Positions 10,075 to 52,896 are shown, counted from the first letter of the stretch. The stretch: DNA of 64,000 bases from an uncultured Candidatus Saccharibacteria bacterium (GCA_964530925.1 CAZHBZ010000002.1:3621-67620); one strand, 5' to 3'. A program made the numbers and translations. Notes: a model not told the origin generated them from the sequence alone.

Positions 10075-10079
10075 GCTAG

Positions 10080-10347: not shown

Positions 10348-10364
10348 TTCTACTACTTACTATG
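10348..10364 (+). repeat. short CTAC-repeat element (TTCTACTACTTACTATG) abutting the TPM gene stop
   Basis: Same submotifs; low complexity. Confidence 0.3.
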
Positions 10365-10367
10365 TTT

Positions 10368-11297: not shown

Positions 11298-11303
11298 TTT
11301 AAA

Positions 11304-11858: not shown

Positions 11859-11907
11859 ATTTTTTTGTTGGTTTCTGATTTCTTTGATTATACCCTAAAC
11901 CCATATT

Positions 11908-11958
11908 TTTAAAAGAAAAGCCCCGACTTGGCCTGCTGACAGCAGGCAGGGTCGGGGC
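11908..11958 (-). terminator. intrinsic terminator downstream of thyX
   Basis: GCCCCGAC...(inner hairpin CCTGCTGACAGCAGG)...GTCGGGGC with a U-rich flank (UUUUCUUUU) in minus sense. Confidence 0.55.
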
Positions 11959-11970
11959 GAGTGCTAGACC

Positions 11971-12702: not shown

Positions 12703-12746
12703 TTAATCCTCCTTCTTTTCTTTCGTGGGGCTGCCTTCAACCTACT

Positions 12747-12782
12747 AAAAACCGCTCCGTTTGTCTACGGAACGGTTTTTGT
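12747..12782 (-). terminator. intrinsic terminator downstream of groEL (bidirectional A-run/T-run flanks)
   Basis: AAAAACCGCTCCGTttgtctaCGGAACGGTTTTT: interrupted GC stem with A5 and T5 flanks. Confidence 0.6.
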
Positions 12783-12793
12783 TATTCTGTTCC

Positions 12794-12816
12794 CGCTACC
12801 CACTACTCACTATCTC
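12794..12816 (+). repeat. short CTAC-repeat element (CGCTACCCACTACTCACTATCTC) abutting the groEL stop codon
   Basis: Same CTAC/CCAC/TCAC submotifs; lies between the groEL stop and its terminator. Confidence 0.4.
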
Positions 12817-14466
<1,650 letters not shown>

Positions 14467-14490
14467 TTTTTCCCAAGAGCGAAGCGATTG

Positions 14491-14544
14491 GCTGAAAAAA
14501 TGAGCACCCCGCCGGAATCGTCAGATGTAGGCGGGGCCGCCTAC
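14491..14544 (-). promoter_or_regulatory. attenuator-like element in the groES-groEL intergenic region: two mutually exclusive hairpins, the distal one terminator-like
   Basis: mRNA sense: GUAGGCGG-cc-CCGCCUAC (perfect 8-bp stem), then CCCCGCC...16 nt...GGCGGGG followed by UGCUCAUUUUUU; the CCCCGCC arm is shared, so the two hairpins exclude each other. Confidence 0.4.
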
Positions 14545-14616
14545 GCTTCACAAAATATTTTTATTCGACTTATTTTTTGAAATTAGTAATTGGAAATTAG
14601 GATTTGCAATTTTGGA

Positions 14617-14907
14617 CTACTCCAAAATTGCCAGAATATCCTCCTCCTCCCCGACCAGATATTTCTTCCCCTCCACCTCCACTTCGTCCGGCCCGTATTT
14701 TTTAAAAAGAACTTTATCCCCGACCTTCACGGACATCGGCATCCTTTCGCCTTTTTCGTTAAATTTGCCAGGGCCCACAGCGACAACAGTTCCCATAACC
14801 GGTTTTTCTTTCTCGGCGGTCTCCGGCAAAACAATACCCGACTTGGTGGTCTTTTCTTCAGAAAGAGCTTCTATAAACAAATGATTTGATAGCGGCTTTA
14901 ACGTCAT
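14617..14907 (-). CDS. groS: co-chaperonin GroES (10 kDa)
   Basis: 96 aa; MTLKPLSNHLFIEALSEEKTTKSGIVLP... canonical GroES. Confidence 0.95.
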   Translation of the reverse strand: MTLKPLSNHLFIEALSEEKTTKSGIVLPETAEKEKPVMGTVVAVGPGKFNEKGERMPMSVKVGDKVLFKKYGPDEVEVEGKKYLVGEEEDILAILE

Positions 14908-15020
14908 TGTTATAAGTTATTTGTTATTAGTTTTACTTACTAGCAATCCCGACCTTCGTCTGCTAATGATAGTAAGAATTTTTTTTAAAGGCAAGCGTGT
15001 TCTGCTCGCCCCCGGAAGAC

Positions 15021-38711: not shown

Positions 38712-39761
38712 CTAAATCAGGGCACTGATAAACAAATCTATTTTTCTCTCAACCGCCTCTAGTCCAAAATTTTCTACTGTTTCCCTTCGCAAATACTCTC
38801 GATCATAAAACCTCTGATCGGCGCGGCCGGCAAGCAGAGAAATTATGGCGCTGGATATTTCCTCTGTCTTCTCTGGATTAATCAAAATTCCGGTTCTTCC
38901 ACAAAGGACCGCATCGGTCGAACCATCCTTATTCCCCGCAACAACCGGAATTCCCGAAGCGGTAGCCTCGATGAACACGATGCCGAAACCTTCGCCGGTT
39001 GAGGGCATAGCAAATACGTCCGCCAAGTTATAGAAATCTGGCAATTCTTCATCCGATACTCGGCCGGCCATAATTACCGAATCAGTCAAATTTAATTTTT
39101 TGATGTACATCCTTATCCTTTCTTCATCACTTCCGCCCCCAACTAAAATATATTTGGCGCCGGGAACCTTTTCCAAAATACTTGGCAAAGACGCGATTAT
39201 TTTATCATAACCCTTATATCCTTCTTCCGAAGAAAGACGCGATACGGTGAGAATTATCTTGTTGCCGGCAAGATTGTACCGGCTAAGCAGTGAGGCCGGT
39301 TTGTTGCTTATTTTAAATCTATTCGCATCTACGACATTCGGAATAACTGTAAGTTTCTCGACCACGCCAGGCAATTCCCTACCGAGACGCTCTGCTGTAT
39401 ATTTTGAAACGGAAATTATTTTATCTGCACCTTTTAGTCCGGCAATTCTCGGCGCGGATTTCAAACCCCAAACGTCCACGCCATGAACCGTGACCGCATA
39501 TTTAACTTTAAATATCGTTTTCAATGCCAAACAAAGCGGAGAAAAATTAACGTGTCCGGCGATTATAAGTTTTGGACGAAAAACTATTTCGGCAAAAAAT
39601 GTCCTAGCAACGAAGGAAAGCTTCCCGAGCAGAGAAGATCTCCTAAGCTCCACTATGCGGCAATCATTTCCAAGATTCTTTAGGGCTTCGCAAAACGCTA
39701 GATTGTGAGCCCCTATGCCACCCTGAGCCGACAGTTTGAAAGCTATATAAATTATTCTCAT
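38712..39761 (-). CDS. GT4 glycosyltransferase
   Basis: GT-B GT4 motifs (…MPSTGEGFGIVFIEATASGIPVV…). Confidence 0.85.
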   Translation of the reverse strand: MRIIYIAFKLSAQGGIGAHNLAFCEALKNLGNDCRIVELRRSSLLGKLSFVARTFFAEIVFRPKLIIAGHVNFSPLCLALKTIFKVKYAVTVHGVDVWGLKSAPRIAGLKGADKIISVSKYTAERLGRELPGVVEKLTVIPNVVDANRFKISNKPASLLSRYNLAGNKIILTVSRLSSEEGYKGYDKIIASLPSILEKVPGAKYILVGGGSDEERIRMYIKKLNLTDSVIMAGRVSDEELPDFYNLADVFAMPSTGEGFGIVFIEATASGIPVVAGNKDGSTDAVLCGRTGILINPEKTEEISSAIISLLAGRADQRFYDREYLRRETVENFGLEAVERKIDLFISALI

Positions 39762-40456
39762 CTCAACTTCTTTTTTAATTCCCGACTGAATTTAATGGTT
39801 CTTTTTATAAATTTACATTTTGAAGCCAGCCCCGTGTTCCAGCTGGATTCCCCGTGAATACGTTTTGGAAAAAACACCGGGAACCTAACAAGTTTCAACT
39901 CGTTTACCCTGGCAAGGTACAAAGCATAGAGATCAAATGCAAAATCCTTGGGCGGACTCTGCCACTTATCAAAAAAATTGCGATGAAATATATTTGGTTG
40001 GGCATTGACCTCAAACAGCATTCTTCCCAAATATAGCGTTTCAAAAATACCCATGCCAAGGCTAAAAAATGAATCTGCCAAGGGCCTTCCCCTGCGGCTG
40101 CCTTTAACATATATATTCTCCGGATTACCCGCCTTTTCTATTATATCTAGCGCTCGGATAACATCCGCAGGGTCGGTTTGCATATCAGCATGAGTCCAAC
40201 CCAGATACTCTCCATTAGCCGAACGCAGTCCGGCCAAAACCGCGCTTCCGTAACCGGCTTCCGGCTCAAAAACAGATTTGGCAAATTTATATCGTGGCAA
40301 AAACTCTGCAAGAACCTGCTTTGTATTATCTTTGGAATTATTGTCCACCAAAACAACTTCCACATCTTCCCTTTTTATAGCGGAAGAAAAGCGGGAAAGA
40401 ATCAGCGGTATGTTTTCCGCTTCGTTATAACACGGGACAACTATTGATAATTTCAT
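39758..40456 (-). CDS. GT2 polyprenyl-phosphate sugar synthase (GtrB/ArnC/DPM1-like)
   Basis: LSIVVPCYNEAENI...VLVDNNSKDNT, 232 aa soluble GT-A immediately upstream of a large GT-C-like membrane protein. Confidence 0.8.
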   Translation of the reverse strand: MKLSIVVPCYNEAENIPLILSRFSSAIKREDVEVVLVDNNSKDNTKQVLAEFLPRYKFAKSVFEPEAGYGSAVLAGLRSANGEYLGWTHADMQTDPADVIRALDIIEKAGNPENIYVKGSRRGRPLADSFFSLGMGIFETLYLGRMLFEVNAQPNIFHRNFFDKWQSPPKDFAFDLYALYLARVNELKLVRFPVFFPKRIHGESSWNTGLASKCKFIKRTIKFSRELKKKLR

Positions 40457-42379
40457 TTAATTTCTTATTAATCCGACAACCGCAGAACCGTATTCCCTAT
40501 TTTCAAAAGTTTTCCATATCTTCCAGCTGGAATAGACCAGTTTGTTTATATAAACTTCTTTCCCGGGAACATCGGACACGAGAACCAGATTTATCCGTTT
40601 ATCCGAAACAATCTCCCCGGGTGAAAGCATCGGGAAGCCGTTTCTCAGTTCGTCTTCCCCGGCAGACAAATTTCTTGCCGCACGGACCTCTCTAACCGAA
40701 AATCCTGCGAGAATCTGGGGAAAAACTCCGTAAGTGGAGCCGGCAATGTAGGCTGAAGATGCGTAACCGTCATTTTTTGCTTCGGTTAAGGCTCTTCCAT
40801 AATCATATGGAAATTCCGAAAGAATACTATATTCCCCAGGTTTTTTAATTACCGCAGTAAATTCACCGGCAAGAGAATCTATCCGCAAGTTGTCCGCCGG
40901 GATGCGGTTAAACACATATATATTGTTTGTAATAAGAACTAAAAGCCCCAGAGACAAAGCATAGCGCGAAACAGATACTCTTTCGCTTGAAAAAACCAAC
41001 ACTGCGAAAATCCCCAGAATTGCGAACGGAGCGATATATTCCGCCTGATAGCGGCCTATTCCCCAAAGGTCGGGCAAAATAAGATAAAAAATCAAAATTC
41101 CACCAAGGAATAAGCTTATGATTTCCAAAAAACGCTTCGTCTTTATGGTATAGAAAACAAAAGCAAACGCCGCAAAAATTATCCATATAGGCTGAACCGA
41201 ATTCGTTATTGCTGTCCAGGCGATCCCGGACTTCAACGCGAACCACACGCGCCCGAGAGCGGAAAGCCCGGTCGGAAGAAATGATTCTCCCCCGGAAACA
41301 AAACTTGCGGAGGTTCCGCCGATGAAGCTTCCGAGAAGAAACGGCGCGGCCACAAGCGCAGGCGACATCGCCACAAACAGATCTTTCCTCGCGGTTTTAC
41401 TTTTCCAAAAATCGGATCCGAGACGGATGAATGCGGGCACAAAAGCCACAAAGGCTGTTTGCCTCACCAGCGTCAATATCGCAATTACGGAAAATAGGCG
41501 CAAATGATCCTGCGCGGAAAGATCGTCCTTGGAAAACAAATATAGAAGCGTAAAACTCCAAGCTAAAGTTGCCCAGACGGACTGCTCGACCAAAATCCCA
41601 ACGTGCCAAACGACCGGAATTGTTGCCGCCGCGATCCCAAAAAGAATGGAATTTAAAAAACCGATTTTTTTAACGGCGAATCTATACGCCATAAATCCCA
41701 GTCCCAACAGCGCAGCAAACTGCGCAAATCTAAAAGCGAAGTCGGAGGGCGAGAATATCGCCCCTGAAAGCCAAAGCGGGAATAGGCGGAACGGCGGATG
41801 CGGGCCACCGCTTCCACCCAAAAGAATTATCATCTCCCTGAAAAGGATAAAAACCAGCGCGTATCCGATAATCTTATAAACCAACTTTTTATTCCGTAAA
41901 AATCTATAAAATAAAATCCCGGCGGCCGCAGTGATCAAACTTACGACCCACAGCAGGGCGCTGAAACTTATATCTCCGAGCCAGGCAAACTTCCCGGAAA
42001 GGATATAGATCAAATTCATCCCGTGAGACTCCGCTTGCTGGGCGTGAGCCAAGCCGTCGTTCACGACCGAGTTTGTCAGGGCGGAAAAAGAAATCGGGAA
42101 TAAAGCGGCGAGTAATAATAAACCCGCAAACACATCCCTCACGCTCACGGCAAAGAAATCTTCAAAAATGTCCGTCTTCTTTTGCCAAAAGAATAGAAAC
42201 AACATAAATATACCGAATAGGATCGGAAACAAAATAAAATTCTTTAGCCAACCCCCCGAGGATAAAGCCCCGAAAAAACCGTAAACCCAAAACGCCGCAA
42301 AAGCGAGTATTGCTGCCCAGTTGATCCGGAAAGCGAATAAAACCTTCGATAAATTCATACTTTTCAGACGCCCAAACAT
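40457..42379 (-). CDS. polytopic membrane glycosyltransferase, GT-C-like (ArnT/PMT-type), 640 aa
   Basis: About 12-13 TM helices plus a C-terminal extracytoplasmic domain; partnered with the upstream polyprenyl-P-sugar synthase (classic GtrB plus GT-C pair). Confidence 0.6.
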   Translation of the reverse strand: MFGRLKSMNLSKVLFAFRINWAAILAFAAFWVYGFFGALSSGGWLKNFILFPILFGIFMLFLFFWQKKTDIFEDFFAVSVRDVFAGLLLLAALFPISFSALTNSVVNDGLAHAQQAESHGMNLIYILSGKFAWLGDISFSALLWVVSLITAAAGILFYRFLRNKKLVYKIIGYALVFILFREMIILLGGSGGPHPPFRLFPLWLSGAIFSPSDFAFRFAQFAALLGLGFMAYRFAVKKIGFLNSILFGIAAATIPVVWHVGILVEQSVWATLAWSFTLLYLFSKDDLSAQDHLRLFSVIAILTLVRQTAFVAFVPAFIRLGSDFWKSKTARKDLFVAMSPALVAAPFLLGSFIGGTSASFVSGGESFLPTGLSALGRVWFALKSGIAWTAITNSVQPIWIIFAAFAFVFYTIKTKRFLEIISLFLGGILIFYLILPDLWGIGRYQAEYIAPFAILGIFAVLVFSSERVSVSRYALSLGLLVLITNNIYVFNRIPADNLRIDSLAGEFTAVIKKPGEYSILSEFPYDYGRALTEAKNDGYASSAYIAGSTYGVFPQILAGFSVREVRAARNLSAGEDELRNGFPMLSPGEIVSDKRINLVLVSDVPGKEVYINKLVYSSWKIWKTFENREYGSAVVGLIRN

Positions 42380-43173
42380 TACCCCACTCTACGCAAAACT
42401 ATCTGTCTCTGCAAGGCGAAAATCCCAGGCAGGATCCGCGTTAAAATATTATCCAGAAATCTAAGGATCTTTAATATAAAAATCGGCAACGGAATATAAA
42501 CCGTCTTAGCCACCACTCCACCGGAATTAATGAAATTAAAGAACTCGCTGAAACTTTGTTTTTCTATTTTGAAATATGGTACTTCTTTTTCAAACTTTTT
42601 TGCATCGTCAAAAAGCAATCTTGGAATGGCGCAGTTCGCAGACCAGAGATCATTCGGATCGGTTGCAACTTTTTCTCTGCTAAATACATCCGCGCCGAAA
42701 TCATATCCCTCGTGCCTCATAAGTCTGAGAAGCGCGCGCATAAAGAATGATGCGTTTATCTCTTGGACCAGCAAAACTCCACCCGGCTTCAAAAGCCTCT
42801 TCGTTTCTTCGAAAAATTTTACCGGATAAGGAGTGTGATGAATCATGTTGCTGGAAATTACAAAATCAAACTCGCCGTCTTTAAATGGCGTGGCTAGCGC
42901 ATCCACATTTTCTACATCCAACCAGTCGTTCGGCGCGTAATCTGTGACTAGATAATCAGCTTTTATAAATTCCTTGCTAAGCCCCGACCCGGCTCCGACC
43001 TCCACCCCTTTTGCTCCGGCAGGGATAAACGCGTTCATCCAGTCAAATCTCCCCTCTAATAGAAACTTTAGGTTGTGGAATTTGGTTCCGAAGAAAAACT
43101 TGCGCGCGGCGAGAACATCGCCTTCCTGGCGCATGCGGTTCAGCTCGTGCGCCGGTTTGTAGGTCCTGCTCAT
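42379..43173 (-). CDS. class I SAM-dependent methyltransferase
   Basis: VEVGAGSGL (motif I), ...FDFVISSNMIHH...LKPGGVLLV. Confidence 0.8.
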   Translation of the reverse strand: MSRTYKPAHELNRMRQEGDVLAARKFFFGTKFHNLKFLLEGRFDWMNAFIPAGAKGVEVGAGSGLSKEFIKADYLVTDYAPNDWLDVENVDALATPFKDGEFDFVISSNMIHHTPYPVKFFEETKRLLKPGGVLLVQEINASFFMRALLRLMRHEGYDFGADVFSREKVATDPNDLWSANCAIPRLLFDDAKKFEKEVPYFKIEKQSFSEFFNFINSGGVVAKTVYIPLPIFILKILRFLDNILTRILPGIFALQRQIVLRRVG

Positions 43174-44000
43174 CTTGTTTTATATATGCTGTCGAAAAAT
43201 TTTACCCAGAGCTTGCTTTCGGCATCTTCCCGAGTCTTCAAATCTCCGTAAACATAAAGATATTCCAGCTCTTCATACCTATGGAGATCTGCCGGCTTTC
43301 CCCAGCCGACATAGAGATCTACATCAAAAATAACGCTCTTAAGTCCAAGCTTTTTGTAGAAAATAGGCAGAGAGTCCACATAAAATTCGTTGTTTATCCT
43401 GTAATTTTCACTTATCATCAGCTCACAAGCATCCTTAAACTGCTTGGCCTTCTTGAAATAGAAGGTCGCCACGACGGCATGATCATTGAACGGTGTATCG
43501 GAAACTGGAATCTTTACCGACATATCCGCGATCGTCTCCCCGTCTTCATCCAGCCTCACCCAGCCCCAAGCTTCCGGCTTGGAGAGCAACAATTCATTCT
43601 TGGTGAAGGTCCACAAGACCATATCTACATCGGATCTTTTTTTCAGGGCAGAAAATTTTTCCTCATCGTATAAAAAGCTATTGTCGCAGGCAGCGATCAA
43701 AACATCCTCTTCCGGGTCCAAATAAGACAGAGCGAGCATGCAACTTGTCGCTTGGCCGACCGGCTTCTCTTCCGGCACGATTATCGCCCCGGGAAGTTTT
43801 TTTAAGATTACTTTATCTATCCCGTAGTTATCGATGTGCTCTTTTCTAACCACAAATATCCACTTATCCGAAGGCGGCAGCGCATCGATTATGGTCAGGA
43901 TCATCGGGGCGCCGGAAGCGGGAATAACCGGCTTAGGCAAAATATAGCCTTCTGCGGCAAAGCGGGAACCGGAGCCGGACATTGGGATTACATTCGCCAT
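43170..44000 (-). CDS. sugar-phosphate nucleotidyltransferase (GT-A-like NTP-transferase fold), paralogue 1
   Basis: N-terminal nucleotide-binding motif VIPMSGSGSRF...PKP; 276 aa. Confidence 0.7.
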   Translation of the reverse strand: MANVIPMSGSGSRFAAEGYILPKPVIPASGAPMILTIIDALPPSDKWIFVVRKEHIDNYGIDKVILKKLPGAIIVPEEKPVGQATSCMLALSYLDPEEDVLIAACDNSFLYDEEKFSALKKRSDVDMVLWTFTKNELLLSKPEAWGWVRLDEDGETIADMSVKIPVSDTPFNDHAVVATFYFKKAKQFKDACELMISENYRINNEFYVDSLPIFYKKLGLKSVIFDVDLYVGWGKPADLHRYEELEYLYVYGDLKTREDAESKLWVKFFDSIYKTR

Positions 44001-44909
44001 TTATTTAAGTTTACGGCTTAATGGGTGATGCCCGCAAACAGAGAAATATCCTTTCCAATAATCATGGGATTTATCCCGAGATTCCAAATTTATCTTCACA
44101 TTTATCTCCCGTTCCGCGGGGATGTCCGTAATTCCTTTTTTCTCACCGATCTCTTCCGCAAAAAATCTCGACCATGCCTCATACTCTTCCAGGTCTTCAG
44201 GGGTTCCCCATTGGCAAAAATACTCCGCCGGATATACGAGAGACCTAAATCCATCTTTTATCATCGGATTAAAAACCAAACTGGTATACGATTCCCCATT
44301 CAAAGTCCAATTTTCTTTTAGCGAACGTTCGCAATATTCTTTAAGCAATTCTCCGGAAGAAAACCAAAAAAGGCCGGACTGCTGCCAGGTATCCATCTTG
44401 TTCGAAGTAAACGAAAATTTTTCGCGCACCTCTTCTGCAAAATTGTTCCCGCCAACCCTAACTCCGGCATAAAGATTCGGACCCAAAAGATGCGGATGAA
44501 AGCCTTTATAACAGATAGAAGCGCTGTCGGCGCCGCGAACCTTGGCTTCCGCCAAAAAATCCTTCTCGTCCCAATACATGGCAAAATCGCAGTAGCTTAC
44601 AAAGACAGGTTCGTCATCCAAAAATTTTTTTGCGGCTAGGATTGCATAGTTGGGACCGAATTTATGCGGCTCAATACTAATTATTTCCGAGTTAGGAGAA
44701 ATCTTTCTCAAAATTCCCCCCATTCCAATATCCGCATCTTTAAGATGCTCCGAATTACAAATAAAAATAAACTTGTCTTCCGGCAAGAACATCTTCGTCA
44801 CATGCTCTATAATGGGCAGTCCGTCCACGCGGATAAGGGGCTTCGGGCTTAAATACCCGGCGGCTTTGAATCGCGACCCAAGTCCGGACATTGGAATAAT
44901 TACTTTCAT
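44001..44909 (-). CDS. sugar-phosphate nucleotidyltransferase, paralogue 2
   Basis: VIIPMSGLGSRFKAAGYLSPKPLI; start at the internal ATG 44907-44909 (MKVIIP...), abutting the upstream gene. Confidence 0.7.
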   Translation of the reverse strand: MKVIIPMSGLGSRFKAAGYLSPKPLIRVDGLPIIEHVTKMFLPEDKFIFICNSEHLKDADIGMGGILRKISPNSEIISIEPHKFGPNYAILAAKKFLDDEPVFVSYCDFAMYWDEKDFLAEAKVRGADSASICYKGFHPHLLGPNLYAGVRVGGNNFAEEVREKFSFTSNKMDTWQQSGLFWFSSGELLKEYCERSLKENWTLNGESYTSLVFNPMIKDGFRSLVYPAEYFCQWGTPEDLEEYEAWSRFFAEEIGEKKGITDIPAEREINVKINLESRDKSHDYWKGYFSVCGHHPLSRKLK

Positions 44910-44922
44910 TTTATTTAAAACC

Positions 44923-45534
44923 CTACTCCCAAAAATGGGCATTCGAAAGCGAACACATGACCGCATCAAGGGACATGCCCAGATCCTCTATCTTGCGCCT
45001 ATAAGACTCAATGTCCTCCGGACGACCCCACCTATCCGGAGAAACCAAAGCCGTTTTAAAGGGGGTTAACCTCACCACCACCTCCCGATCGAGGGGGAGG
45101 ATGGTGTTTGTGTCTATCCACGCCCAATTAACCAACCCAGCCTGAGCAAGCGCGAATTCAATTGGTTCCGCCTCGCTGTAGCGTACCGCAATTTCTTTAA
45201 CACCGGAGCGCGATGCGCGATATAGGTATGGAAATTCCACATCCAGGAGAAAATAGTTTTCTTTTGGAATTTTATATTTTTCCGCCAGAACGATACAGCG
45301 CTCTTCTGTCCCAGCCTCTTTTATATTAAAAATGATAAATTTGTGTTTGAAATTCTGCAGATATAATTCCAAACCATCGCATTCTTCCCCCGGCCCCGCT
45401 GGGTCATGGCTTAAATATAAGCTATCCGTTGTGGGGTTATGTCGCACATCTATCTCTACGCCGTAGATTTCGGGTACTTTTTTTAGATCCTCCACGCGAT
45501 TGATCCTGTGGATTATTATGATTGGTTTTTTCAT
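44923..45534 (-). CDS. GDPD-like (glycerophosphodiester phosphodiesterase/PLC-like) small protein
   Basis: IIIHRINRVEDL...GVEIDVRHNPTTDSLYLSHD resembles the GDPD HR...E.D...HD catalytic pattern; 203 aa. Confidence 0.5.
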   Translation of the reverse strand: MKKPIIIIHRINRVEDLKKVPEIYGVEIDVRHNPTTDSLYLSHDPAGPGEECDGLELYLQNFKHKFIIFNIKEAGTEERCIVLAEKYKIPKENYFLLDVEFPYLYRASRSGVKEIAVRYSEAEPIEFALAQAGLVNWAWIDTNTILPLDREVVVRLTPFKTALVSPDRWGRPEDIESYRRKIEDLGMSLDAVMCSLSNAHFWE

Positions 45535-45536
45535 TT

Positions 45537-46436
45537 TCAGATCAACATTGTCTTCCTGTGCTTCTCCGTTTCCATATTCCTCAAGTATATTACTTTTGCT
45601 TCTGGCAACAGCTCTATTTGAAAGCCGAGATTATTCGCGGAGGAAAGCACATAACTCCAGGCTCCGAACAATTCCTTTTCGGCAGGAGAATAATCATTAA
45701 ACCCCCGCCCGTTCACGGAAAAAACTGCTTGGTCCGGAAAGATAATGTCTTTCCCAAAATTAAAATTGTGCGTTCCCGCACCCACAACGTCCGGGACGTA
45801 TCGGGAAAGCCCTAGCTGAACTTTTATTTCTAAATCCAATTTCTTATGCAAATCCGCAAGCCTCTCGGCAGAATCTGCGGAAACTATCACTCCATGGTTC
45901 TTTAGGAAAATTATTTCGGGAATGCCTCTCTCTCTAACTAATTCGGCAACCGCGATCGCCAGCTCGGCCCCGGGATGGAAATATCCTAAAAATGCGGAGC
46001 TGAATCCGAGTTTCGAGCAAATATTCGCCGATAATTCTTCTCCGCCCGCAGAACAGGTCAAAACATTCGCATAAACGGAATGGGTATGAAGAACGTACTT
46101 CCCAAGAAATGCATGGAACCCGGCCTCCATTGAGGGCCTAAAATCCCCTCCGGCGAGTCGGCAGGACAAAAGAAATTCTGCTTCTTTTTTCTCGCCGCTT
46201 TCGCGATCCGGCTCCGCTAGCTTGCCATATCTTTCGGCAAGCATCGGATAGTTAATCTCCACAAATCCTTTTTGGGGGCTTAATTCGGAAAATCTCATCC
46301 CGGACGCCTTAATGATCATCGTACCTGCGCCCGTTTTAACCGAAAGATTTCCCCCGCTTCCCTGAACCGCATCCGGCGCGGAAAAATCGGCGGCAATCAT
46401 GGAAAGCTCAGTAAGTTCTTTTTTCATATTCTTCAA
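45537..46436 (-). CDS. class II aldolase/adducin-family protein (L-ribulose-5-P 4-epimerase/L-fuculose-P aldolase-like)
   Basis: GSGGNLS phosphate-binding motif, metal-binding H.H (HTHS...H). Confidence 0.8.
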   Translation of the reverse strand: MKNMKKELTELSMIAADFSAPDAVQGSGGNLSVKTGAGTMIIKASGMRFSELSPQKGFVEINYPMLAERYGKLAEPDRESGEKKEAEFLLSCRLAGGDFRPSMEAGFHAFLGKYVLHTHSVYANVLTCSAGGEELSANICSKLGFSSAFLGYFHPGAELAIAVAELVRERGIPEIIFLKNHGVIVSADSAERLADLHKKLDLEIKVQLGLSRYVPDVVGAGTHNFNFGKDIIFPDQAVFSVNGRGFNDYSPAEKELFGAWSYVLSSANNLGFQIELLPEAKVIYLRNMETEKHRKTMLI

Positions 46437-48534
46437 TTCTCATTCCTTCAAAAATATAATAACAGATAAAGAGCTGCATAAGCCCATCATAGCCGGAGGC
46501 CCACTTCGGTTCCCCCACGACAACATCCCAAAGCTCCGGGGCCACGCTGAAAGCAATCGAATCTATCTCTCCGGGAGAAACCTGCCCCTCTACCCTGACT
46601 TCTTGAAATTCATCTGAGAAAGAATGGTTCACGCGCATCCCCCGGAGCTCTCCCAGTGCGGAAAGAAGCGGATCCATATTTACGTGATTCCCGCACCTTA
46701 TGGCCAAATTCATATTCCCAGTTCCATCCACCCTGCCGAGAGAAACAACAATATCCGAATATTGTTCCTGGGGCTTAATGAACCGTTCGGAGTCGGATCC
46801 TCTTTTTTTAATCTGTTCCAGCACACGCGCCCGATCATAGCCCCTCTCTCGCATGTCACGTTCAACTTTCCAGTCAACCCTTAAATCTTCATCTGGACGC
46901 AAAAATATTTTTAGATCCAAGATGTCCCTCATCTTCGTCAGATACAAAGAGTGAAGCCCTTCAAAAATAATTATTTTTTTGGATTCCAGCTTTTCCGGAA
47001 GGGTAAACCTTCCTCTATTATGGTCGTATCTTTTCCTTTCCACTCCATCGCCTCCGCCGAGCCTAATCGCTTGCTCCAGGTCAGCGTGAAGATTATTTGC
47101 CCGCGGATCGAGGTGGGTAAACTTATTCCACATTTTGTTCCCCCTCTCCCATTTATGCATATCGTCTCCTTCGGCGACCACGGTATTTTTCTCCCCAAAT
47201 ACATCCGATATCAACCTAGCAACCGTAGATTTGCCGCTACCTGAGTCCCCGGAAAGTCCGATAAGATAGGGTTTGTAACTTATTTTGTAACGCATATTGC
47301 TCTCGATTCCCTTTCGGTATATCCAAAAAACACTGAGCGCCAAAGCGGCCTGCAGCGCGCTAAATATAGAATTAATTATTATCGCCGGGTTATGGCCATA
47401 GGAGGAGATGGCCGAATAAAGATTAGGATACCCGGCTATAACTTTTGATATAGGATAAAACACCTCGAACATATCCGAGTTGGGAATAAACATAAAATAC
47501 AAAAAATAAAGAAAGTTCAGGGCAAAAAAGCTAAGCATTGGAGCATCGTCCTGTTTTATGTAGAAATATATAAGAAACGGAAGCACCCAATAATACCAGC
47601 CTTGCATGGGCGGGATAAAGAAAGTAAGTATGCCGAAACTGAAACCGAGAAACATCAGGAAAATGTCTCGATTATAAGTCTTATAGGTGAAACCTTTCGC
47701 CAGAAGAAGAAGGTACGCAAATGGAACCAGGTAGATGACGAAGTTCCCGCCAAAATTTATCTTGAAGTCGAATACCTTAAACTCTTGGGGAGTTTTGAGA
47801 ACTATCTCTACGAATCCCGGAGATAGAAGGTAGTTGGCATTCAGCGCCAAAAAGACAAAGATCGGGATTGCCGAAAAGAGCAATACCTTTCTGACTCCTA
47901 TTTTCTGGCTCACAAGATATGCGATAGCAAAGGGTAGAACTATTAACATCCCCGTCTTCGCAGAAACAGCGAGCCCGAGAAATATAAAAGCCGCAAATAA
48001 TTTTTCTTTAAAAATAAAGTATAGCGAGACAAAAAGAAGGGCAATGGGAATCGCATCCAGCTGGCCATGAATATAGCTTATATAAAAAAGTATCGGTGAA
48101 CACCAATAATAGCGCAGCACTTTCTCTTGTTTGCTCTTGAGCCACCTGACCAAAATCAGGAATATCGCCAAGTCCGCCAAAAGTATGGGGAGTCTGTAGA
48201 TCAGGAGGTGCAGATTTCCGGCCGCGAAATAGTCCGCGCTAACCAGAAAAGAAAAAATTGCCCTTGGAACGGCCAGCGCCCAAAGCATCACGCTCGGGTA
48301 GGGAAAAATATCCAGAATCCCGGCTTGAGAAAAAAATGCATACGGGTTCTCAAACCCGCTAACCACGAAATAATTTATAAATCTGGAGAATAAATCCGTT
48401 AGGTAGTGTGAAGCGAAAAGCGCCGAAGACAGCAACTTCAGACCCAAAACACACCAAAAGAGAGGCCGTCTCAATATTGGGACTTTAAAACTTCCCTGCC
48501 TGTCATAAAGACGGCTTTTCAGGTATTTGACCAT
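46408..48534 (-). CDS. fusion protein: N-terminal polytopic membrane domain (about 420 aa, GT-C/DUF2029-like) plus C-terminal phosphoribulokinase/uridine-kinase-family P-loop kinase domain
   Basis: C-terminus: LIGLSGDSGSGKST (P-loop), IIFEGLH, KIFLRPDEDLRVDWKVERDMRERGY...PQEQYSDIVV closely follows the PRK/Udk family blocks; N-terminus has 11 or more hydrophobic helices; overlaps the downstream gene by 29 nt. Confidence 0.7.
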   Translation of the reverse strand: MVKYLKSRLYDRQGSFKVPILRRPLFWCVLGLKLLSSALFASHYLTDLFSRFINYFVVSGFENPYAFFSQAGILDIFPYPSVMLWALAVPRAIFSFLVSADYFAAGNLHLLIYRLPILLADLAIFLILVRWLKSKQEKVLRYYWCSPILFYISYIHGQLDAIPIALLFVSLYFIFKEKLFAAFIFLGLAVSAKTGMLIVLPFAIAYLVSQKIGVRKVLLFSAIPIFVFLALNANYLLSPGFVEIVLKTPQEFKVFDFKINFGGNFVIYLVPFAYLLLLAKGFTYKTYNRDIFLMFLGFSFGILTFFIPPMQGWYYWVLPFLIYFYIKQDDAPMLSFFALNFLYFLYFMFIPNSDMFEVFYPISKVIAGYPNLYSAISSYGHNPAIIINSIFSALQAALALSVFWIYRKGIESNMRYKISYKPYLIGLSGDSGSGKSTVARLISDVFGEKNTVVAEGDDMHKWERGNKMWNKFTHLDPRANNLHADLEQAIRLGGGDGVERKRYDHNRGRFTLPEKLESKKIIIFEGLHSLYLTKMRDILDLKIFLRPDEDLRVDWKVERDMRERGYDRARVLEQIKKRGSDSERFIKPQEQYSDIVVSLGRVDGTGNMNLAIRCGNHVNMDPLLSALGELRGMRVNHSFSDEFQEVRVEGQVSPGEIDSIAFSVAPELWDVVVGEPKWASGYDGLMQLFICYYIFEGMRIEEYEKRTY

Positions 48535-48558
48535 GATGCGTTGAGCCAGCTAGATTGC

Positions 48559-49212
48559 CTATCCTAAAAGAACCGTTCTTATTCCCGCTGCCTTTGCTCC
48601 GGAAATATCCTTTTCCAAATCGTCTCCTATAAGAAGGCACTCCTTTGGCCTCAGTTTAAGCTTCTTAAGAGCCAGGGAGAATATCGCCTCGTGGGGCTTA
48701 TCCTTTCCAGCCTCTTCCGAAGATACAATAAAATCCAGGTATTTATCAACCGAAAGGGATTTAACTTTCTCCATCTGTATCCGCGCAGTAAGATCGGTTA
48801 TCAGACAAATCTTTATCCCTCTTTTTTTCGAATTGGATAAAAAGGTTTTTACGCCCTCTTTCAAATTCATTTTTTTGAAAAAATTATTCCAAAAAATTTC
48901 TTCAATCCGCAAAGTCAGGGCGATATCAGTTCTTCCCAGATGTTTTTCCAAAAGTACCTGAAAATAAAGAAGGCGCGAGTGAGAGGCTGCTGTTCCTCCC
49001 AGAGAAGATTTTACTTCCTTGCGAGCTTCGCCATACATACGCTCCAGATCTTTTTCGGAAAGATTAAGGCGGCGACTCAACACCTTGAAACAGGCGCTCA
49101 TGCCGTTTTTGTTTGCCGGTTCGTAATCATAAAGAGTGTTGTCCAGATCCAAAAGGATACCCCTCACGCCAGACAGAGCAATTTCTGGGATATAAAATTT
49201 ATTTTTTTTCAT
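48559..49212 (-). CDS. HAD-superfamily hydrolase (subfamily IA-like phosphatase)
   Basis: Motif I LLDLDNTLYD, motif III K, motif IV LLIGDDLEKDISGAKAAG. Confidence 0.85.
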   Translation of the reverse strand: MKKNKFYIPEIALSGVRGILLDLDNTLYDYEPANKNGMSACFKVLSRRLNLSEKDLERMYGEARKEVKSSLGGTAASHSRLLYFQVLLEKHLGRTDIALTLRIEEIFWNNFFKKMNLKEGVKTFLSNSKKRGIKICLITDLTARIQMEKVKSLSVDKYLDFIVSSEEAGKDKPHEAIFSLALKKLKLRPKECLLIGDDLEKDISGAKAAGIRTVLLG

Positions 49213-50935
49213 AATTTTTCAAAACCAATTCAGCCCAAAAGCGAGAGAGGTGGCCTGGCGCGCCTTTTAAATCCAAAGAAAGCCAATTCCCCAGCGGAAA
49301 TGCGAAACCCATTTTCGGTCTGTCCCACACCTCGCGCGGCAAGTCTCGACCCATGGCGGAGATAAGCAACTCCTTGGGTCGCGCAGTCAGCTTGAGCGAG
49401 ACAGGAAGCGAACTTATATATTCCACGAGTACGTGATCCAAAAATGGGACCCTCGCCTCTATAGAATGTCGCATCGACATGAAATCCGTGTCTTTCAAAA
49501 GCTGGTTGGCCATGTAAAAATTGACCTCCAGCCAGGAAAGGGCGTCGGCCGGATGCAAATTCTTGAGTTCGGTTGGCAGGAAATCTCCAAGTTTAGCAAT
49601 ATAGCTCCAAACCGAAGACTCGTTTATTTTTAAAGTTTCCGCTATCTCCGCCGGGGGGAAAAGTCCCCGAAGCGACAAATAGAAGTTTATGAGCCCCTTT
49701 CCCTCATATAGATAAATTAATTTCGCCCAACTCCTCCGAAGGGATAAGAGTTTGAGCGGCCACTTTAAAATTTTTGGTAATTTTTGAACGAATCGAAAAA
49801 GGCTCGCTCGCTTAAAATAGTGGTAGCCCATAAAAATCTCGTCGCTCCCCAACCCGGAAAGCACCGCCTTGAGTCCGGCCTCTTTGGCCGCTCGAGAGAC
49901 AAAATATGTATTTACGCCATCGATGGTTGGCTGATCCATGGCCGCAAATATATTTTCCTTTTCCGACTCGAAATCTTCCCTCCCGACCAAGTATTCTTTG
50001 TGCCGGCTTTTAATTCGCGCCGTCACACCTTCCCGATACTTTTTCTCCGAAAATTTATATTCTTTAAAATCAATAGAAAGCGTATCTAGAGCTTTTTCTC
50101 TCTGTTTCGCGGCTAAAATGGCCAAAACGGATGAATCTATTCCCCCGCTCAAGAAAACTCCGAGTGGCGCGTCGCTTATGAGATGTAACCTGACGGATTC
50201 ATTCAATAGTTCCTTGATTCTTGAAACAGCCGCTCCTTTTGCTGGCGAAATTTTTTTGAGAAAGGAAGTTAGGGGCTCATAATATTTGATTTCTTTGGCC
50301 CCGTTTTTTGAAAAACTTAGATAATGTCCGGCTCTCACAGAATAAACCTCCTTGAATGTAGTCTTGGGAAGTGGCACCGAGCCAAAAAGCAAAAAGCCAA
50401 TCTTTGCCTCCTCGTCTTCATGTAGTTCCACGAGGCCGCTCTCTTTTATGGCCACGACCGTCGAGGCAAAAACAAGACCTCCCTGGGTCGCTGCGTAATA
50501 AAGCGGTTTTATCCCGTACCGATCGCGCGCGAGAATCAACTCTTCTCCCCGAGAATCATAAAGCGCTATCGCGAACATTCCCCGCAACTTGGAAAATGAT
50601 TCCTTCCCCCACTCTTTGTAGCTTGCGAGAATTACCTCAGTGTCAGTTTTTGTTTTGAACGAATACCCTTTTGCGACAAGTTCCTTTTTAATTTCTTCGA
50701 AGTTATATATCTCTCCATTGAAAGTTATATGCAAATTACCCGAAGACATCGGTTGATGCCCGTCGGCCGAAAGATCGATTATAGAAAGGCGTCTTTGGCC
50801 GAACGTTGCCGGACCGAAAGAATCGAGCCCTTCATCATCCGGCCCTCGAAGCTTCTGACGAGCGTTCATCTTGCGGACCGCATCTTCGGACCCTCGCCCA
50901 TCCGAAAACGAAATTGCCCCCGCGATTCCGCACAT
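49199..50935 (-). CDS. asparagine synthase (glutamine-hydrolysing) family amidotransferase
   Basis: N-terminal MCGIAG (Ntn Cys), SGGIDSS PP-loop; 578 aa; embedded in the glycan operon (WbpS/AsnB-like context). Confidence 0.88.
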   Translation of the reverse strand: MCGIAGAISFSDGRGSEDAVRKMNARQKLRGPDDEGLDSFGPATFGQRRLSIIDLSADGHQPMSSGNLHITFNGEIYNFEEIKKELVAKGYSFKTKTDTEVILASYKEWGKESFSKLRGMFAIALYDSRGEELILARDRYGIKPLYYAATQGGLVFASTVVAIKESGLVELHEDEEAKIGFLLFGSVPLPKTTFKEVYSVRAGHYLSFSKNGAKEIKYYEPLTSFLKKISPAKGAAVSRIKELLNESVRLHLISDAPLGVFLSGGIDSSVLAILAAKQREKALDTLSIDFKEYKFSEKKYREGVTARIKSRHKEYLVGREDFESEKENIFAAMDQPTIDGVNTYFVSRAAKEAGLKAVLSGLGSDEIFMGYHYFKRASLFRFVQKLPKILKWPLKLLSLRRSWAKLIYLYEGKGLINFYLSLRGLFPPAEIAETLKINESSVWSYIAKLGDFLPTELKNLHPADALSWLEVNFYMANQLLKDTDFMSMRHSIEARVPFLDHVLVEYISSLPVSLKLTARPKELLISAMGRDLPREVWDRPKMGFAFPLGNWLSLDLKGAPGHLSRFWAELVLKNYEKK

Positions 50936-50936: not shown

Positions 50937-51536
50937 TTATTTTCCTTTTTCCGGAGCCTTTAGCGTCGCCAAAAGATCGCTCACCCGGGAATCATCCGGC
51001 CAATATTTCAAAATAGTCCCTCCAACTTCTCTTGTATTCTCGTCATCTCCGACCGCGCTATAAAGCGTCAGAAGACCGTAAAGGACCGGCGGCAATTTCG
51101 GTCCGAGTTCACGCGCTCGTTTGTAATAGTCTATGGCGGCATCATAATCATCCTGCTTCATAAACCGAGTGAGAGACATTGTGTGAAGAGTTGCCATAGC
51201 AATATAATGCCGCGTGTCCGGATATATTTTCGGTTCGATATAATCTATAAGTTCCCGCGCCATCGATTCGGATATGTCTTGCTGCGAGTTGACCACGGAA
51301 AGGATATTGCTTGTAAGATATTTCGCCGACTCCTCTCCTCCGACCGGAGAATAGAAATCAAAAACTTTATCGAAATTCGCTTTGAAATCAGCGATGGTGC
51401 GCACGCTGTTGGCGCTTCGGGCCGAGTCTATATAGGTTTGCGATTTTAAGACCGGCAAGACCGAACCGAATACAAACAAAAAAACCACGGCGAGGATACA
51501 GAGCGAAATAACCGCCAATTTAAAACTATTGTTCAT
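50937..51536 (-). CDS. hypothetical membrane-anchored TPR-like protein
   Basis: N-terminal TM segment followed by helical repeats (…AIDYYKRARELGP…); no precise family. Confidence 0.5.
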   Translation of the reverse strand: MNNSFKLAVISLCILAVVFLFVFGSVLPVLKSQTYIDSARSANSVRTIADFKANFDKVFDFYSPVGGEESAKYLTSNILSVVNSQQDISESMARELIDYIEPKIYPDTRHYIAMATLHTMSLTRFMKQDDYDAAIDYYKRARELGPKLPPVLYGLLTLYSAVGDDENTREVGGTILKYWPDDSRVSDLLATLKAPEKGK

Positions 51537-52896
51537 TAGTCCTGTTTTCTTTTGCCCGCGACGAATTCAGAAGATAGTAGGCAAAACCAAAGAAGAGAAA
51601 AATATTCAAGTAAGTCGGCAATATGTCGAAAAGCACCATGCCCTGCACCAGGTAAGCTATGGGCAACGCGAAGACTATCGCCTTGGCGGCTGGCGAGAGC
51701 TTCGCTAGTCTTGAAGCGTTCTCGTGGCTCGAATGTTTCTCCCGCCCCTTTCTTAAAACCTCCACGAAGAAAACCAAAAAAATAGAGAAGTACGCGAGAG
51801 TTCCCAAAAGCCCTATCTCCGCCAAATAATCAAAGAATATATTATGAGCCCTATCGAACCACGCGCCGAACGCCGCCGGCGGCTTGAAATATTCGGTATT
51901 AAAATTGCGGTCAAAAACATGTAAGAAATTTTCCGGACCGGCTCCCAAAAGCGGCCTCTCTTTAAATCCGTCCCAAGCCATCTTCCAGATAGTGCGGCGG
52001 TCGCTGAAAGTTTGAGCGCTGAAAGAAATATCAAAAACCCTGGCGAACGGGAGCTTCTTTATGAGCGGATTATCTTTTAAGACGACCATCGCCGACACAA
52101 ACAAAACCACAAACGCCGCAAGCCCAATAAGCCACTTCCTCCACTCTTTTTTGGAGAACGCCAAAAATCCCAGGAAAAATACCGAACTCGCGATTAAAGC
52201 TAGGAAAGCTCCGCGGGTCGCCGCCAAAAATAGAAATACAATAAATATCAAAACGGAAGCGGCTATCGGCAGGCCCTTAACCGAACGAATCTGTCCGCGA
52301 TATTTAGTAAAAAGGAGATAAAGAGCGAAAAAGAGCATAAAAATCATGTAAGTCGCGAAATAGGCCGGGTTTCCGATAGAACCTTGGAATCGGAAATTCT
52401 CCGCGCTAAACGCCGGGCCGATCACGTTCTCCACTCCCCAGCCCGCCAAAAGACCGTAACCAATAGAAAGGAAGGCGGCGGAAAAAGAGCACCAGAATAT
52501 TCTTATCCAGTTCTTCTCTTCGTCAAAAAGCGCCGCTAAAAGCAGAAAAAATCCATAAAGATGGAGTATCTGTAAGCCACCCTCTCCCCGCTCAAAATTA
52601 GACCAAAAAGAATTGGCTGGATCGACGCCAAAAGCTCCAGAGAGAAGAAAAAAGAATGTAAACGCTGAAATCGCGATGCCGAGCGGAGACCTTATAACTT
52701 TGCGTAGCTTGTCTAGATAGACATCGCCGTCGCTCTCTTTTATGAGCCCGATAAGGAAAAAGATAAGCGCGAAGTCAACGGAACTCCGAAACCACGCGTA
52801 TTTCCCAACGATAAAAGGGAAAAGCGTGGATGTAGTAACCAAGGTTATCGCGAAAACCGCGGCGTAAAGAAAAAATTTTGATATTTTGAATGACAT
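51526..52896 (-). CDS. O-antigen ligase/polymerase family membrane protein (Wzy_C)
   Basis: 10-12 TM helices with a periplasmic loop (…QGSIGNPAY…ATRGAF…); 456 aa; closes the Wzx/Wzy-type locus. Confidence 0.75.
   Translation of the reverse strand: MSFKISKFFLYAAVFAITLVTTSTLFPFIVGKYAWFRSSVDFALIFFLIGLIKESDGDVYLDKLRKVIRSPLGIAISAFTFFFLLSGAFGVDPANSFWSNFERGEGGLQILHLYGFFLLLAALFDEEKNWIRIFWCSFSAAFLSIGYGLLAGWGVENVIGPAFSAENFRFQGSIGNPAYFATYMIFMLFFALYLLFTKYRGQIRSVKGLPIAASVLIFIVFLFLAATRGAFLALIASSVFFLGFLAFSKKEWRKWLIGLAAFVVLFVSAMVVLKDNPLIKKLPFARVFDISFSAQTFSDRRTIWKMAWDGFKERPLLGAGPENFLHVFDRNFNTEYFKPPAAFGAWFDRAHNIFFDYLAEIGLLGTLAYFSIFLVFFVEVLRKGREKHSSHENASRLAKLSPAAKAIVFALPIAYLVQGMVLFDILPTYLNIFLFFGFAYYLLNSSRAKENRTNEQ

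Follow-up and report, generated by a model that had tools for sequence, protein, structure and literature searches.

A recurring gene cassette around a predicted GT-C glycosyltransferase-phosphoribulokinase fusion in a Saccharibacteria glycan locus

Gene content of the locus

The window analysed here is a stretch of 64,000 nucleotides from an uncultured Candidatus Saccharibacteria bacterium (GCA_964530925.1, CAZHBZ010000002.1:3621-67620). It contains a glycan locus of about 35 kb (18-53 kb) with genes for a Wzx-type flippase, GT4 and GT2 glycosyltransferases, methyltransferases, sugar dehydratases, sugar-nucleotide-modifying enzymes and a Wzy_C protein. Within this locus, eight open reading frames (ORFs) at 42379-50935 overlap or are separated by no more than 24 nt, and one of them encodes a 708-aa protein in which a membrane domain is joined to a kinase. 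A preliminary description, made from the sequence alone, had read these eight genes as a sugar-activation and decoration module. The eight ORFs are present as described, all on the minus strand, and the family calls were each recovered by Pfam and NCBIfam, except for a 203-aa protein that was recognised at the level of the fold. The genes of this unit and two genes downstream of it are listed below, with the two domains of the fusion given separately; PRK stands for phosphoribulokinase.

49199-50935, minus strand: AsnB-type glutamine amidotransferase (Asn_synthase 1.9e-70; TIGR01536 428 bits, cut-off 267)
48559-49212, minus strand: HAD-IA phosphatase, candidate pentulose-bisphosphate 5-phosphatase (HAD_2 5e-27)
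46408-48534, minus strand: predicted 708-aa GT-C::PRK fusion (PRK PF00485 1e-41 at aa 424-600)
47293-48534, minus strand: predicted GT-C-fold membrane glycosyltransferase domain of the fusion, aa 1-414
46408-47292, minus strand: predicted class II phosphoribulokinase domain of the fusion, aa 415-708, predicted to be cytoplasmic
45537-46436, minus strand: class II aldolase/epimerase-fold enzyme (Aldolase_II 2.7e-17, 63.7 bits)
44923-45534, minus strand: GDPD/PI-PLC-fold TIM-barrel phosphodiesterase, 203 aa (fold match; no Pfam family)
44001-44909 (ORF to 44969), minus strand: nucleotidyltransferase NT_A, 302 aa (NTP_transf_3 about 1e-6, 29.8 bits)
43170-44000, minus strand: nucleotidyltransferase NT_B, 276 aa, paralogue of NT_A (NTP_transf_3 about 1e-6)
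42379-43173, minus strand: class I S-adenosylmethionine-dependent methyltransferase, accessory (Methyltransf_11 5e-14, 53 bits)
40457-42379, minus strand: 640-aa polytopic membrane protein, probable second GT-C-type transferase (weak PMT_2 match)
39758-40456, minus strand: short GT2 of 232 aa, candidate polyprenyl-phosphate glycosyltransferase (Glycos_transf_2, 79 bits)

The gene order is the same in a 96%-identical relative. In this relative NT_A is annotated from the ATG corresponding to 44909, which is likely to be the true start.

The two halves of the fusion protein

The C-terminal half of the fusion is predicted, from its sequence and its model, to be a complete class II PRK that keeps all the residues for ribulose-5-phosphate (Ru5P) binding and catalysis. 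PF00485 matched aa 424-600 with 143.4 bits against a cut-off of 22, and at the PDB sequence level PRK structures reached 128-142 bits compared with 66 for Udk. The NCBIfam PRK model (PRK07429) gave 191 bits, below its cut-off of 236 and spanning the N-terminal 190 of its 326 profile positions only, and the Udk model gave 85 bits. The AlphaFold2 (AF2) model of the fusion, made from a 50-sequence alignment, had a predicted local distance difference test score (pLDDT) of 91.4 and a predicted template modelling score of 0.83. The best matches to aa 415-708, in sequence and in structure, were the 'cyanobacteria-specific PRK' 9qko and 9qkn and the Methanospirillum hungatei PRK 5b3f. The kinase half covers a whole class II PRK of about 300 aa including the C-terminal subdomain, which uridine kinases lack, whereas Udk covers about 190 columns.

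Residues G429, S431, G434 and K435 (Walker A), D457/H460/R464, Y503/H505 and R559/D560/R564 were invariant in 50 homologues. They align to the Walker A motif, the catalytic Asp and the Ru5P-phosphate binders of PRK (Chlamydomonas Arg64, Tyr103, His105 and Arg159/Asp160/Arg164), with residue roles taken from the literature on plant, algal and archaeal PRKs. The kinase motifs named in the preliminary description are present in the translation, and its PRK/Udk-family kinase joined to a membrane domain could be narrowed to the PRK type by the full-length class II alignment and the PRK-specific residues. A generic AAA or adenylate-kinase fold for this domain, checked in sequence and in structure, was ruled out by the full PRK fold match. 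Public names for the homologues of about 700 aa are 'uridine kinase', 'phosphoribulokinase' and 'hypothetical protein' (JGI and PGAP among the sources). Because of such names, KEGG- or Pfam-based reconstructions could count the fusions as Calvin-cycle PRK.

The N-terminal half is predicted, again from sequence and model, to be a GT-C glycosyltransferase, one of the folds that had been put forward for it. The structure match showed the GT-C fold, with PIG-M, ALG3, ALG6, PimE and ArnT as the nearest structures, and these relatives all use polyprenyl-phosphate sugars. Residues 1-420 of the window protein had no Pfam match. When five homologues were scanned, three were barely above a GT-C cut-off (GT87 26.1 against 25, ALG3 25.6 against 23.6 and Alg6_Alg8 25.9 against 25), and the other Pfam GT-C matches among the five were below it. 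D121 and D160 were invariant and are predicted, from helix order and charge distribution, to lie near the outer face of the membrane.

Conservation of the cassette

With the proteins of the window, we searched 83 related loci from Patescibacteria, Bacteroidota, Alphaproteobacteria, Melainabacteria and DPANN archaea, and three plasmids in addition. Many of the loci are partial, and 44 have full flanks. The aldolase-fold enzyme was present in 73 of the 83 loci, NT_A and NT_B in 71 each, the HAD phosphatase in 62, the 232-aa GT2 in 60 and the GDPD-like 203-aa protein in 59; all six partners occurred in 29 of the 44 full-flank loci. The conserved core thus consists of the HAD, the GT-C::PRK fusion, the class II aldolase-like enzyme, the GDPD-fold phosphodiesterase, the two nucleotidyltransferases (NTases) and the short GT2, and is often accompanied by GtrA and a second large membrane protein. 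Six genes of the originally described unit belong to this cassette, together with the two downstream genes, whereas the AsnB and methyltransferase genes proved to be accessory.

The fusion has more than 700 homologues, and a scan of about 186,000 species genomes (one genome per species, two peptide patterns) detected it in 170. Lineages that carry it include Patescibacteria, Bacteroidota (among them the cultured Zeaxanthinibacter enoshimensis and Geojedonia litorea), Alphaproteobacteria with Rickettsiales (Ca. Megaera), Melainabacteria, a spirochaete endosymbiont and DPANN archaea. In phages, only short matches to the kinase domain and no fusion were found. The preliminary description had proposed to look for the same fusion and neighbourhood elsewhere, and both recur across phyla. 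Since the proteins have hundreds to thousands of homologues and their neighbourhood recurs in this way, the conservation of the cassette is far beyond chance. Several cassette records of metagenome-assembled genomes on loci that resemble Candidate Phyla Radiation loci (CPR; L007, L010-L012, L024, L027, L035 and others) bear implausible labels such as 'Rickettsia typhi', 'Chitinophaga pinensis' and 'uncultured Gammaproteobacteria', and taxon counts based on record titles therefore need caution.

AsnB homologues were found in 15 of the 83 loci, at variable distance and with low scores, and were syntenic only in close relatives (L008, L084). Methyltransferase homologues occurred in four of the 83, and a close one (250 bits) lies at 11511-12359 of plasmid pHbal01, in the cassette of Hirschia. 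Both genes are lineage-specific extras outside the conserved core, and on these counts we rejected them as core steps. In the subset of lineages that have it, the methyltransferase may methylate the transferred sugar. A later amidation by AsnB, as had been suggested, finds no support in the conservation and would be chemically odd for a neutral pentulose, since AsnB-type enzymes amidate carboxylates.

Natural gene fusions link the parts of the cassette. We found GT-C::PRK::aldolase proteins of 1058-1059 aa with the aldolase at the C-terminus (CPR), GtrA::GT-C::PRK in one ORF (L063, a Woesearchaeote), NT_A::NT_B in Flavobacteriaceae and on the three plasmids, and NT_B::GT2 in alphaproteobacterial loci, for example the 521-aa protein of L030. 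Since they are linked in this way, the parts would act in one pathway.

Three full-flank loci (L051, L057, L070) had neither the aldolase nor the 203-aa protein and kept the HAD, both NTases and the GT2. L070, of the Flavobacteriales (Bacteroidota) and the only one of the three that was scanned, has a canonical Pfam GDPD (PF03009, 92 bits) at 12001-12795, in the slot of the aldolase and the 203-aa protein. As a canonical GDPD fills this slot, the GDPD-type step would be integral. Since the downstream genes persist without the aldolase, the latter would be dispensable for feeding the NTases and would edit the sugar rather than cleave it. The two genes are lost together, a pattern that points to a functional match between the short GDPD form and the aldolase. 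At a further group of Bacteroidota loci (L058, L059, L060, L064, L068 and L072-L075), the fusion and the aldolase have only unrelated neighbours (aminopeptidase P, CreD, integrase, transposase).

All three plasmids carry the whole cassette with the seven core proteins recognisably orthologous. On the 33-kb IncR plasmid NZ_CP145712.1 of Escherichia coli (L086, human stool), the cassette spans 6022-14984 with an IS26 copy downstream and encodes NT_A::NT_B, GtrA, GT2, the GDPD-like protein, GT-C::PRK, HAD, the aldolase and a 586-aa hypothetical protein. An identical copy was found in a bullfrog isolate; two of 5426 complete E. coli genomes were positive. On plasmid p5 of Azospirillum brasilense MTCC4039, the cassette adjoins a polysaccharide cluster with ABC-transporter, GDP-fucose and GT1 genes. 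The third is pHbal01 of Hirschia baltica ATCC 49814 (L088).

Partner enzymes of the fusion

The HAD gene usually lies directly upstream of the fusion, and in most loci the HAD and aldolase genes flank it. The best NCBIfam match of the HAD was NF053830, the haloarchaeal ribulose-1,5-bisphosphate (RuBP) 5-phosphatase, with a full-length score of 203 bits that stays below the cut-off of 330. The runner-up reached 134 bits, which makes NF053830 the top family by 69 bits. All of 15 orthologues from six lineages (CPR, Bacteroidota, Alphaproteobacteria, Melainabacteria and archaea among them) matched NF053830. The catalytic motifs D22-x-D24, S165, K172 and D197/D202 were invariant. At the PDB sequence level, the best match was N-acylneuraminate-9-phosphatase. 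The haloarchaeal enzyme makes ribulose-1-phosphate, and its operon also encodes a class II aldolase for which this product is the substrate (PMC9700705).

For the aldolase-fold enzyme of the cassette, the PF00596 match reached 63.7 bits (cut-off 22.2). Its FucA-like phosphate site (G28, G29, N30 and S32; S45 and G46; P101 and S102), E104 and the metal ligands H117, H119 and H181 were conserved in at least 93% of 68 orthologues, and a C-terminal extension of about 100 aa is specific to the family. The enzyme would be metal-dependent with a site of the ketose-1-phosphate type, which is compatible with cleavage, epimerisation and dehydration alike. We also considered the aldolase and the HAD as an MtnB/MtnC-like dehydratase and enolase-phosphatase and found this reading unsupported, as no enolase-phosphatase family was among the HAD matches.

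The 203-aa protein had no match in Pfam, NCBIfam or at the PDB sequence level. Its AF2 model (pLDDT 97.1) found GDPDs as all of the top 12 Foldseek matches in the PDB (TMq 0.62-0.73, E about 1e-6), and the GDPD catalytic set H9 R10 ... E27 D29 ... H43 was invariant in the family. The label 'GDPD-like' given earlier to this protein is thus correct at the level of the fold. The family has at least 1470 homologues, all unnamed; for the plasmid orthologues, the PGAP label is PI-PLC/GDPD family protein. A role of the GDPD as a supplier of glycerol-3-phosphate was unsupported, as the conserved core contains no glycerophosphotransferase.

NT_A and NT_B are 30% identical (E 1e-33) and hence paralogues, as had been proposed. 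NT_A keeps the GxGxR-F...K23 loop and the C-terminal motif W234-G-T-P-x-D, and NT_B likewise keeps the catalytic loop and the C-terminal W-G-(T)-P-x-D motif, which we take to be typical of sugar-1-phosphate NTases. Their PDB sequence matches were weak (4evw, CTP:inositol-1-phosphate cytidylyltransferase and HddC).

The GT2 and the large membrane protein lie outside the originally described unit, and the former is found in most loci (60 of 83), where its homologues score 160-355 bits. At the PDB sequence level it matched the dolichyl-phosphate mannose synthase DPMS (5mlz) with 53 bits, ArnC with 45 and chondroitin synthase with 54. About 28 loci have a gene of the GtrA family (PF04138; GtrA/DPMS-TM proteins), in many cases immediately upstream of the fusion or beside the GT2. 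A lipid-carrier step by GT2 and GtrA, which the preliminary description had missed, would explain the presence of the GT-C domain. The 640-aa protein has strong hydrophobic segments and a weak PMT_2 match (24.8 bits, cut-off 26.1), and is probably a second GT-C-type transferase. Its homologues were found in nine of the 83 loci and in Hirschia; in other cassettes the equivalent slot is occupied by unrelated large membrane proteins of 530-690 aa.

Proposed pathway and alternative explanations

We put the probability at roughly 0.5 that the cassette makes a Ru5P-derived, lipid-carried sugar that decorates an extracytoplasmic glycan. In such a pathway, the kinase domain would convert Ru5P to RuBP at the inner face of the membrane, and the HAD would strip the 5-phosphate to give ribulose-1-phosphate, which is able to close to a furanose. 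The aldolase-fold enzyme would then edit the stereochemistry, for example by a retro-aldol/aldol 4-epimerisation towards the xylulose configuration, so that the sugar is not destroyed. NT_A, the GDPD-fold enzyme and NT_B could convert the ketose phosphate to a nucleotide-activated donor. The roles of the GDPD and of the second NTase in this activation are speculative. In one equally speculative scheme that uses all three enzymes, NT_A would form a nucleoside diphosphate (NDP) ester at O1, the GDPD enzyme would cyclise it to the 1,2-cyclic phosphate, whose opening would yield the anomeric 2-phosphate, and NT_B would re-activate the latter in a second nucleotidyl transfer. The GT2, with GtrA where present, would load the sugar onto polyprenyl phosphate. 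After flipping, the GT-C domain and the 640-aa protein would transfer it to the glycan of the surrounding Wzx/Wzy locus. The soluble enzymes of the cassette are predicted to be cytoplasmic, since they have no hydrophobic segments, and a Ru5P supply is encoded nearby, as genes for an epimerase and a transketolase lie in the window.

Among the substrates suggested before (pentose, pentulose or polyol), a pentulose is the best-supported class. The proposed logic, resembling NDP-heptose activation with non-orthologous enzymes, is reinforced by the series of kinase, bisphosphate, HAD and NTase and by the family match of the HAD.

Several points weigh against a lipid-carried pentulose. Both the kinase and the HAD score under the curated NCBIfam cut-offs (PRK 191 against 236 bits, HAD 203 against 330), and their substrates are therefore identified by analogy only. 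A ketose-1-phosphate is not anomeric, so that a simple route from NTase to GT2 is chemically unworkable, and when GDPD/PI-PLC enzymes reopen a cyclic phosphate, it normally returns to its original position. The GT2 scores for polyprenyl-phosphate transferases are no better than for chondroitin synthase and assign the protein to no family of such transferases, and no GtrA was found in the window by a single-sequence search and by a hidden Markov model built from 25 loci. The structural matches of the membrane half include the non-catalytic GT-C fold PIG-U. The first external loop of this half (aa 40-106), the usual site of the GT-C catalytic Asp, has no acidic residue (Asp or Glu) that is invariant. 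Nine Bacteroidota loci (those listed above, four with full flanks) hold the fusion and the aldolase with no HAD, NTase or GT2 within 10 kb, and one more adds a single NTase. Finally, the enzyme roles and the identity of the sugar are inferred from sequence, fold and gene context.

Since ribulose-1-phosphate is an alcohol phosphate rather than an anomeric one, a phosphodiester-linked, teichoic-acid-like decoration has to be considered. Here CDP-type alcohol-phosphate donors would be the product of one NTase or of both, for example a nucleotide-linked pentulose-1-phosphate, or glycerol phosphate freed by the GDPD enzyme, and the unit would be moved as the phosphate of a sugar or polyol and not as a glycosyl residue. 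The cassette has a phosphodiesterase of the GDPD type as an obligatory partner, for which a canonical GDPD can substitute, and the PDB matches of NT_A include CTP:inositol-1-phosphate cytidylyltransferase. Phosphocholine decoration follows the logic of GDPD, kinase and a LicC-type NTase, and in pneumococcus CDP-arabinitol is made by way of CDP-xylulose. However, the conserved core has no CDP-alcohol phosphotransferase and no TagF-, LicD- or fukutin-type transferase, and the fusion of NT_B to a GT-A-fold GT2 points to an NDP-sugar as the glycosyl donor. The W-G-(T)-P-x-D motif of both NTases, presumably a sugar-1-phosphate trait, and GtrA, GT2 and GT-C as the classic polyprenyl-phosphate-sugar trio also argue against it, and we regard this explanation as rather unlikely. 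It is quite improbable that the kinase acts on a nucleoside (making NTP for the NTases), on another sugar phosphate or on a lipid-linked intermediate, with a source sugar other than a pentulose. The domain does belong to the mixed PRK/uridine-kinase family, some homologues are named 'uridine kinase' by JGI and PGAP, its score is under the NCBIfam PRK cut-off, and the clade of the nearest solved relatives 9qko and 9qkn was noted as unassayed (Jaffe et al., 10.1101/386292). Yet PRK models and structures outscore Udk about two-fold, the PRK fold is complete including the C-terminal subdomain, the Ru5P-phosphate binders (Arg, Tyr-x-His) and the catalytic Asp are invariant, and the partner HAD is closest to the RuBP 5-phosphatase.

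PRK, HAD and aldolase might also form a catabolic or central-carbon shunt from Ru5P via RuBP and ribulose-1-phosphate to dihydroxyacetone phosphate and glycolaldehyde, or supply RuBP to RuBisCO, with the glycan genes as mere neighbours. The HAD and class II aldolase pair does this in haloarchaea (PMC9700705), CPR homologues of PRK have been read as a partial Calvin cycle or an augmentation of the AMP pathway (10.1101/386292), and the nine loci with fusion and aldolase only would fit. Against this, the kinase is covalently joined to the GT-C membrane domain in every member, other fusions join the NTases to each other and to the GT2, and plasmids carry the cassette as one unit into hosts whose pentose metabolism is complete. 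The aldolase-less variants keep the remainder, and a shunt would waste ATP. No RuBisCO turned up in the searches with the window proteins or in the annotations of a dozen loci, although RuBisCO itself was not searched for. We consider such a shunt highly improbable.

Within the reading of a Ru5P-derived, lipid-carried sugar, the cassette could more specifically be a route to activated pentulofuranose (ribulo- or xylulofuranose) donors in which PRK and HAD let the phosphate walk from C5 to C1 and an NDP ester with a GDPD-type cyclic-phosphate step brings it to the anomeric C2, followed by the second nucleotidyl transfer, polyprenyl-phosphate loading and GT-C transfer; this is an extension that we offer tentatively and judge unlikely. 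If it is true, the cassette would explain where the acid-labile xylulofuranose (Xulf) comes from that occurs in E. coli O95/O97, Yersinia enterocolitica, Campylobacter jejuni RM1221 and Devosia glycans. Organisms with known Xulf glycans include Y. enterocolitica O:5,27 and O:10, Devosia submarina KMM 9415 and Eubacterium saburreum T15. According to a 2019 review, the O-antigen clusters of the E. coli Xulf serogroups contain no nucleotide-precursor genes. In Y. enterocolitica O:10, only putative glycosyltransferases have been assigned to the transfer of L-Xulf. With serogroups O95/O97 in view, the 5426 complete E. coli genomes were searched at the DNA level; this gave two plasmids only, with no diverged chromosomal copy detectable.

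Relation to described systems

No published description of the fusion or the cassette was found in the literature, in line with the earlier remark that the arrangement was not recognised as a described system. A known NDP-heptose or CDP-polyol cluster by close homology was rejected on the Pfam and NCBIfam matches. With NDP-heptose activation (GmhA, HddA/HldE, GmhB, HddC/HldE) the cassette shares the addition of a second phosphate, the removal of the distal phosphate by a HAD enzyme and the activation by an NTase, and HddC is among the weak PDB sequence matches of both NTases. The cassette kinase, however, is a P-loop PRK instead of a GHMP or PfkB kinase, and the HAD is of subfamily IA and RuBP-phosphatase-like instead of GmhB. 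There is no GmhA, the phosphate would sit on the non-anomeric ketose C1, and the GDPD, the aldolase-fold enzyme and the second NTase add extra steps. Neither GmhA nor a GHMP/PfkB heptose kinase nor GmhB was among the Pfam and NCBIfam matches of the cassette proteins.

The haloarchaeal non-carboxylating pentose bisphosphate pathway shares with the cassette an operon that joins a HAD of this closest family to a class II aldolase-fold enzyme. Both systems imply RuBP and ribulose-1-phosphate as intermediates, and the PRK/HAD/aldolase triad of the cassette mirrors the second half of that pathway. There, RuBP is derived from nucleosides via ribose-1,5-bisphosphate isomerase in a catabolic route (Sato et al. 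2022, PMC9700705), whereas in the cassette it would come from Ru5P via a membrane-anchored PRK and feed the NTases, the GT2 and the GT-C domain. The score of the cassette HAD falls short of the equivalog threshold, and the cassette aldolase, extended at its C-terminus, is distantly related.

The GT2 beside GtrA and a GT-C protein are shared with the polyprenyl-phosphate-sugar systems (GtrA/GtrB/GtrC, ArnC/ArnT, PpgS with its GtrA-like partner, dolichyl-phosphate mannose synthase with PIG-M/ALG3, and PimE). In contrast to these, the GT-C domain is fused to a cytoplasmic sugar kinase and has its own five-enzyme donor branch, and the copy in the window is without GtrA. The overall flow also resembles the decaprenyl-phospho-arabinose pathway of Corynebacterineae, which runs from phosphoribosyl pyrophosphate through polyprenyl-phosphate-ribose-5-phosphate, dephosphorylation and epimerisation to GT-C arabinosyltransferases. 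The cassette differs from it in having NTases and a GT2 instead of phosphoribosyl pyrophosphate synthetase, a UbiA-type phosphoribosyltransferase and DprE1/E2. We regard the cassette as a candidate lipid-carrier-dependent glycan decoration system of familiar type, with a dedicated donor pathway and unusual enzymology.

Unlike the fusion, the class II PRKs (9qko, 9qkn, 5b3f) are soluble, stand-alone enzymes tied to RuBisCO metabolism and not to glycan loci. The Stanieria orthologue of the cyanobacterial PRK has chemotaxis and Mg-chelatase genes as neighbours and neither a HAD nor an aldolase or NTase gene close by. PRK homologues of CPR, reported from Gottesmanbacteria and Peregrinibacteria, were earlier read as Calvin-cycle or AMP-pathway enzymes akin to divergent, unassayed cyanobacterial PRKs (10.1101/386292). 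If the proposed pathway is true, PRK and RuBP gain a role beyond carbon fixation and nucleoside salvage, and PRK matches in genomes of CPR, DPANN, Rickettsiales and Bacteroidota would not be automatic markers of the Calvin cycle. In the case of the pentulofuranose donors, RuBP, otherwise almost only a substrate of RuBisCO, would become a committed intermediate of glycan biosynthesis, and the cassette would be a candidate source of ketopentofuranose residues in bacterial glycans. On the proposed pathway, the cassette would be a conserved system for surface-glycan decoration that also occurs in host-dependent ultra-small bacteria and archaea with almost unknown envelopes. The hypothesis can be tested directly, as an E. 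coli plasmid and cultured Azospirillum, Hirschia and flavobacteria carry the whole cassette.

Neighbouring genes in the window

Directly upstream of the AsnB gene lie the genes for a tetratricopeptide repeat protein (50937-51536) and a Wzy_C/O-antigen-ligase-family protein (51526-52896), both syntenic with the cassette only in its closest relatives (L008, L013, L084). The pentose-phosphate genes of the window are a ribulose-phosphate 3-epimerase gene (4552-5208) and a split transketolase, with the N-terminal part at 3647-4507 and the pyrimidine-binding/C-terminal part at 2104-3093. Between the transketolase halves is a 163-aa ORF (3098-3589) with no Pfam family, and a PfkB-family kinase is encoded at 982-2028. 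A low-GC island at 8001-10164 (GC 0.377 against about 0.47) encodes an R.Pab1-type restriction endonuclease (8088-8849) and an N6 DNA methylase (8830-10002) and is probably an acquired restriction-modification system. The tRNA-Ser gene at 10079-10164 adjoins this restriction/methylase pair.

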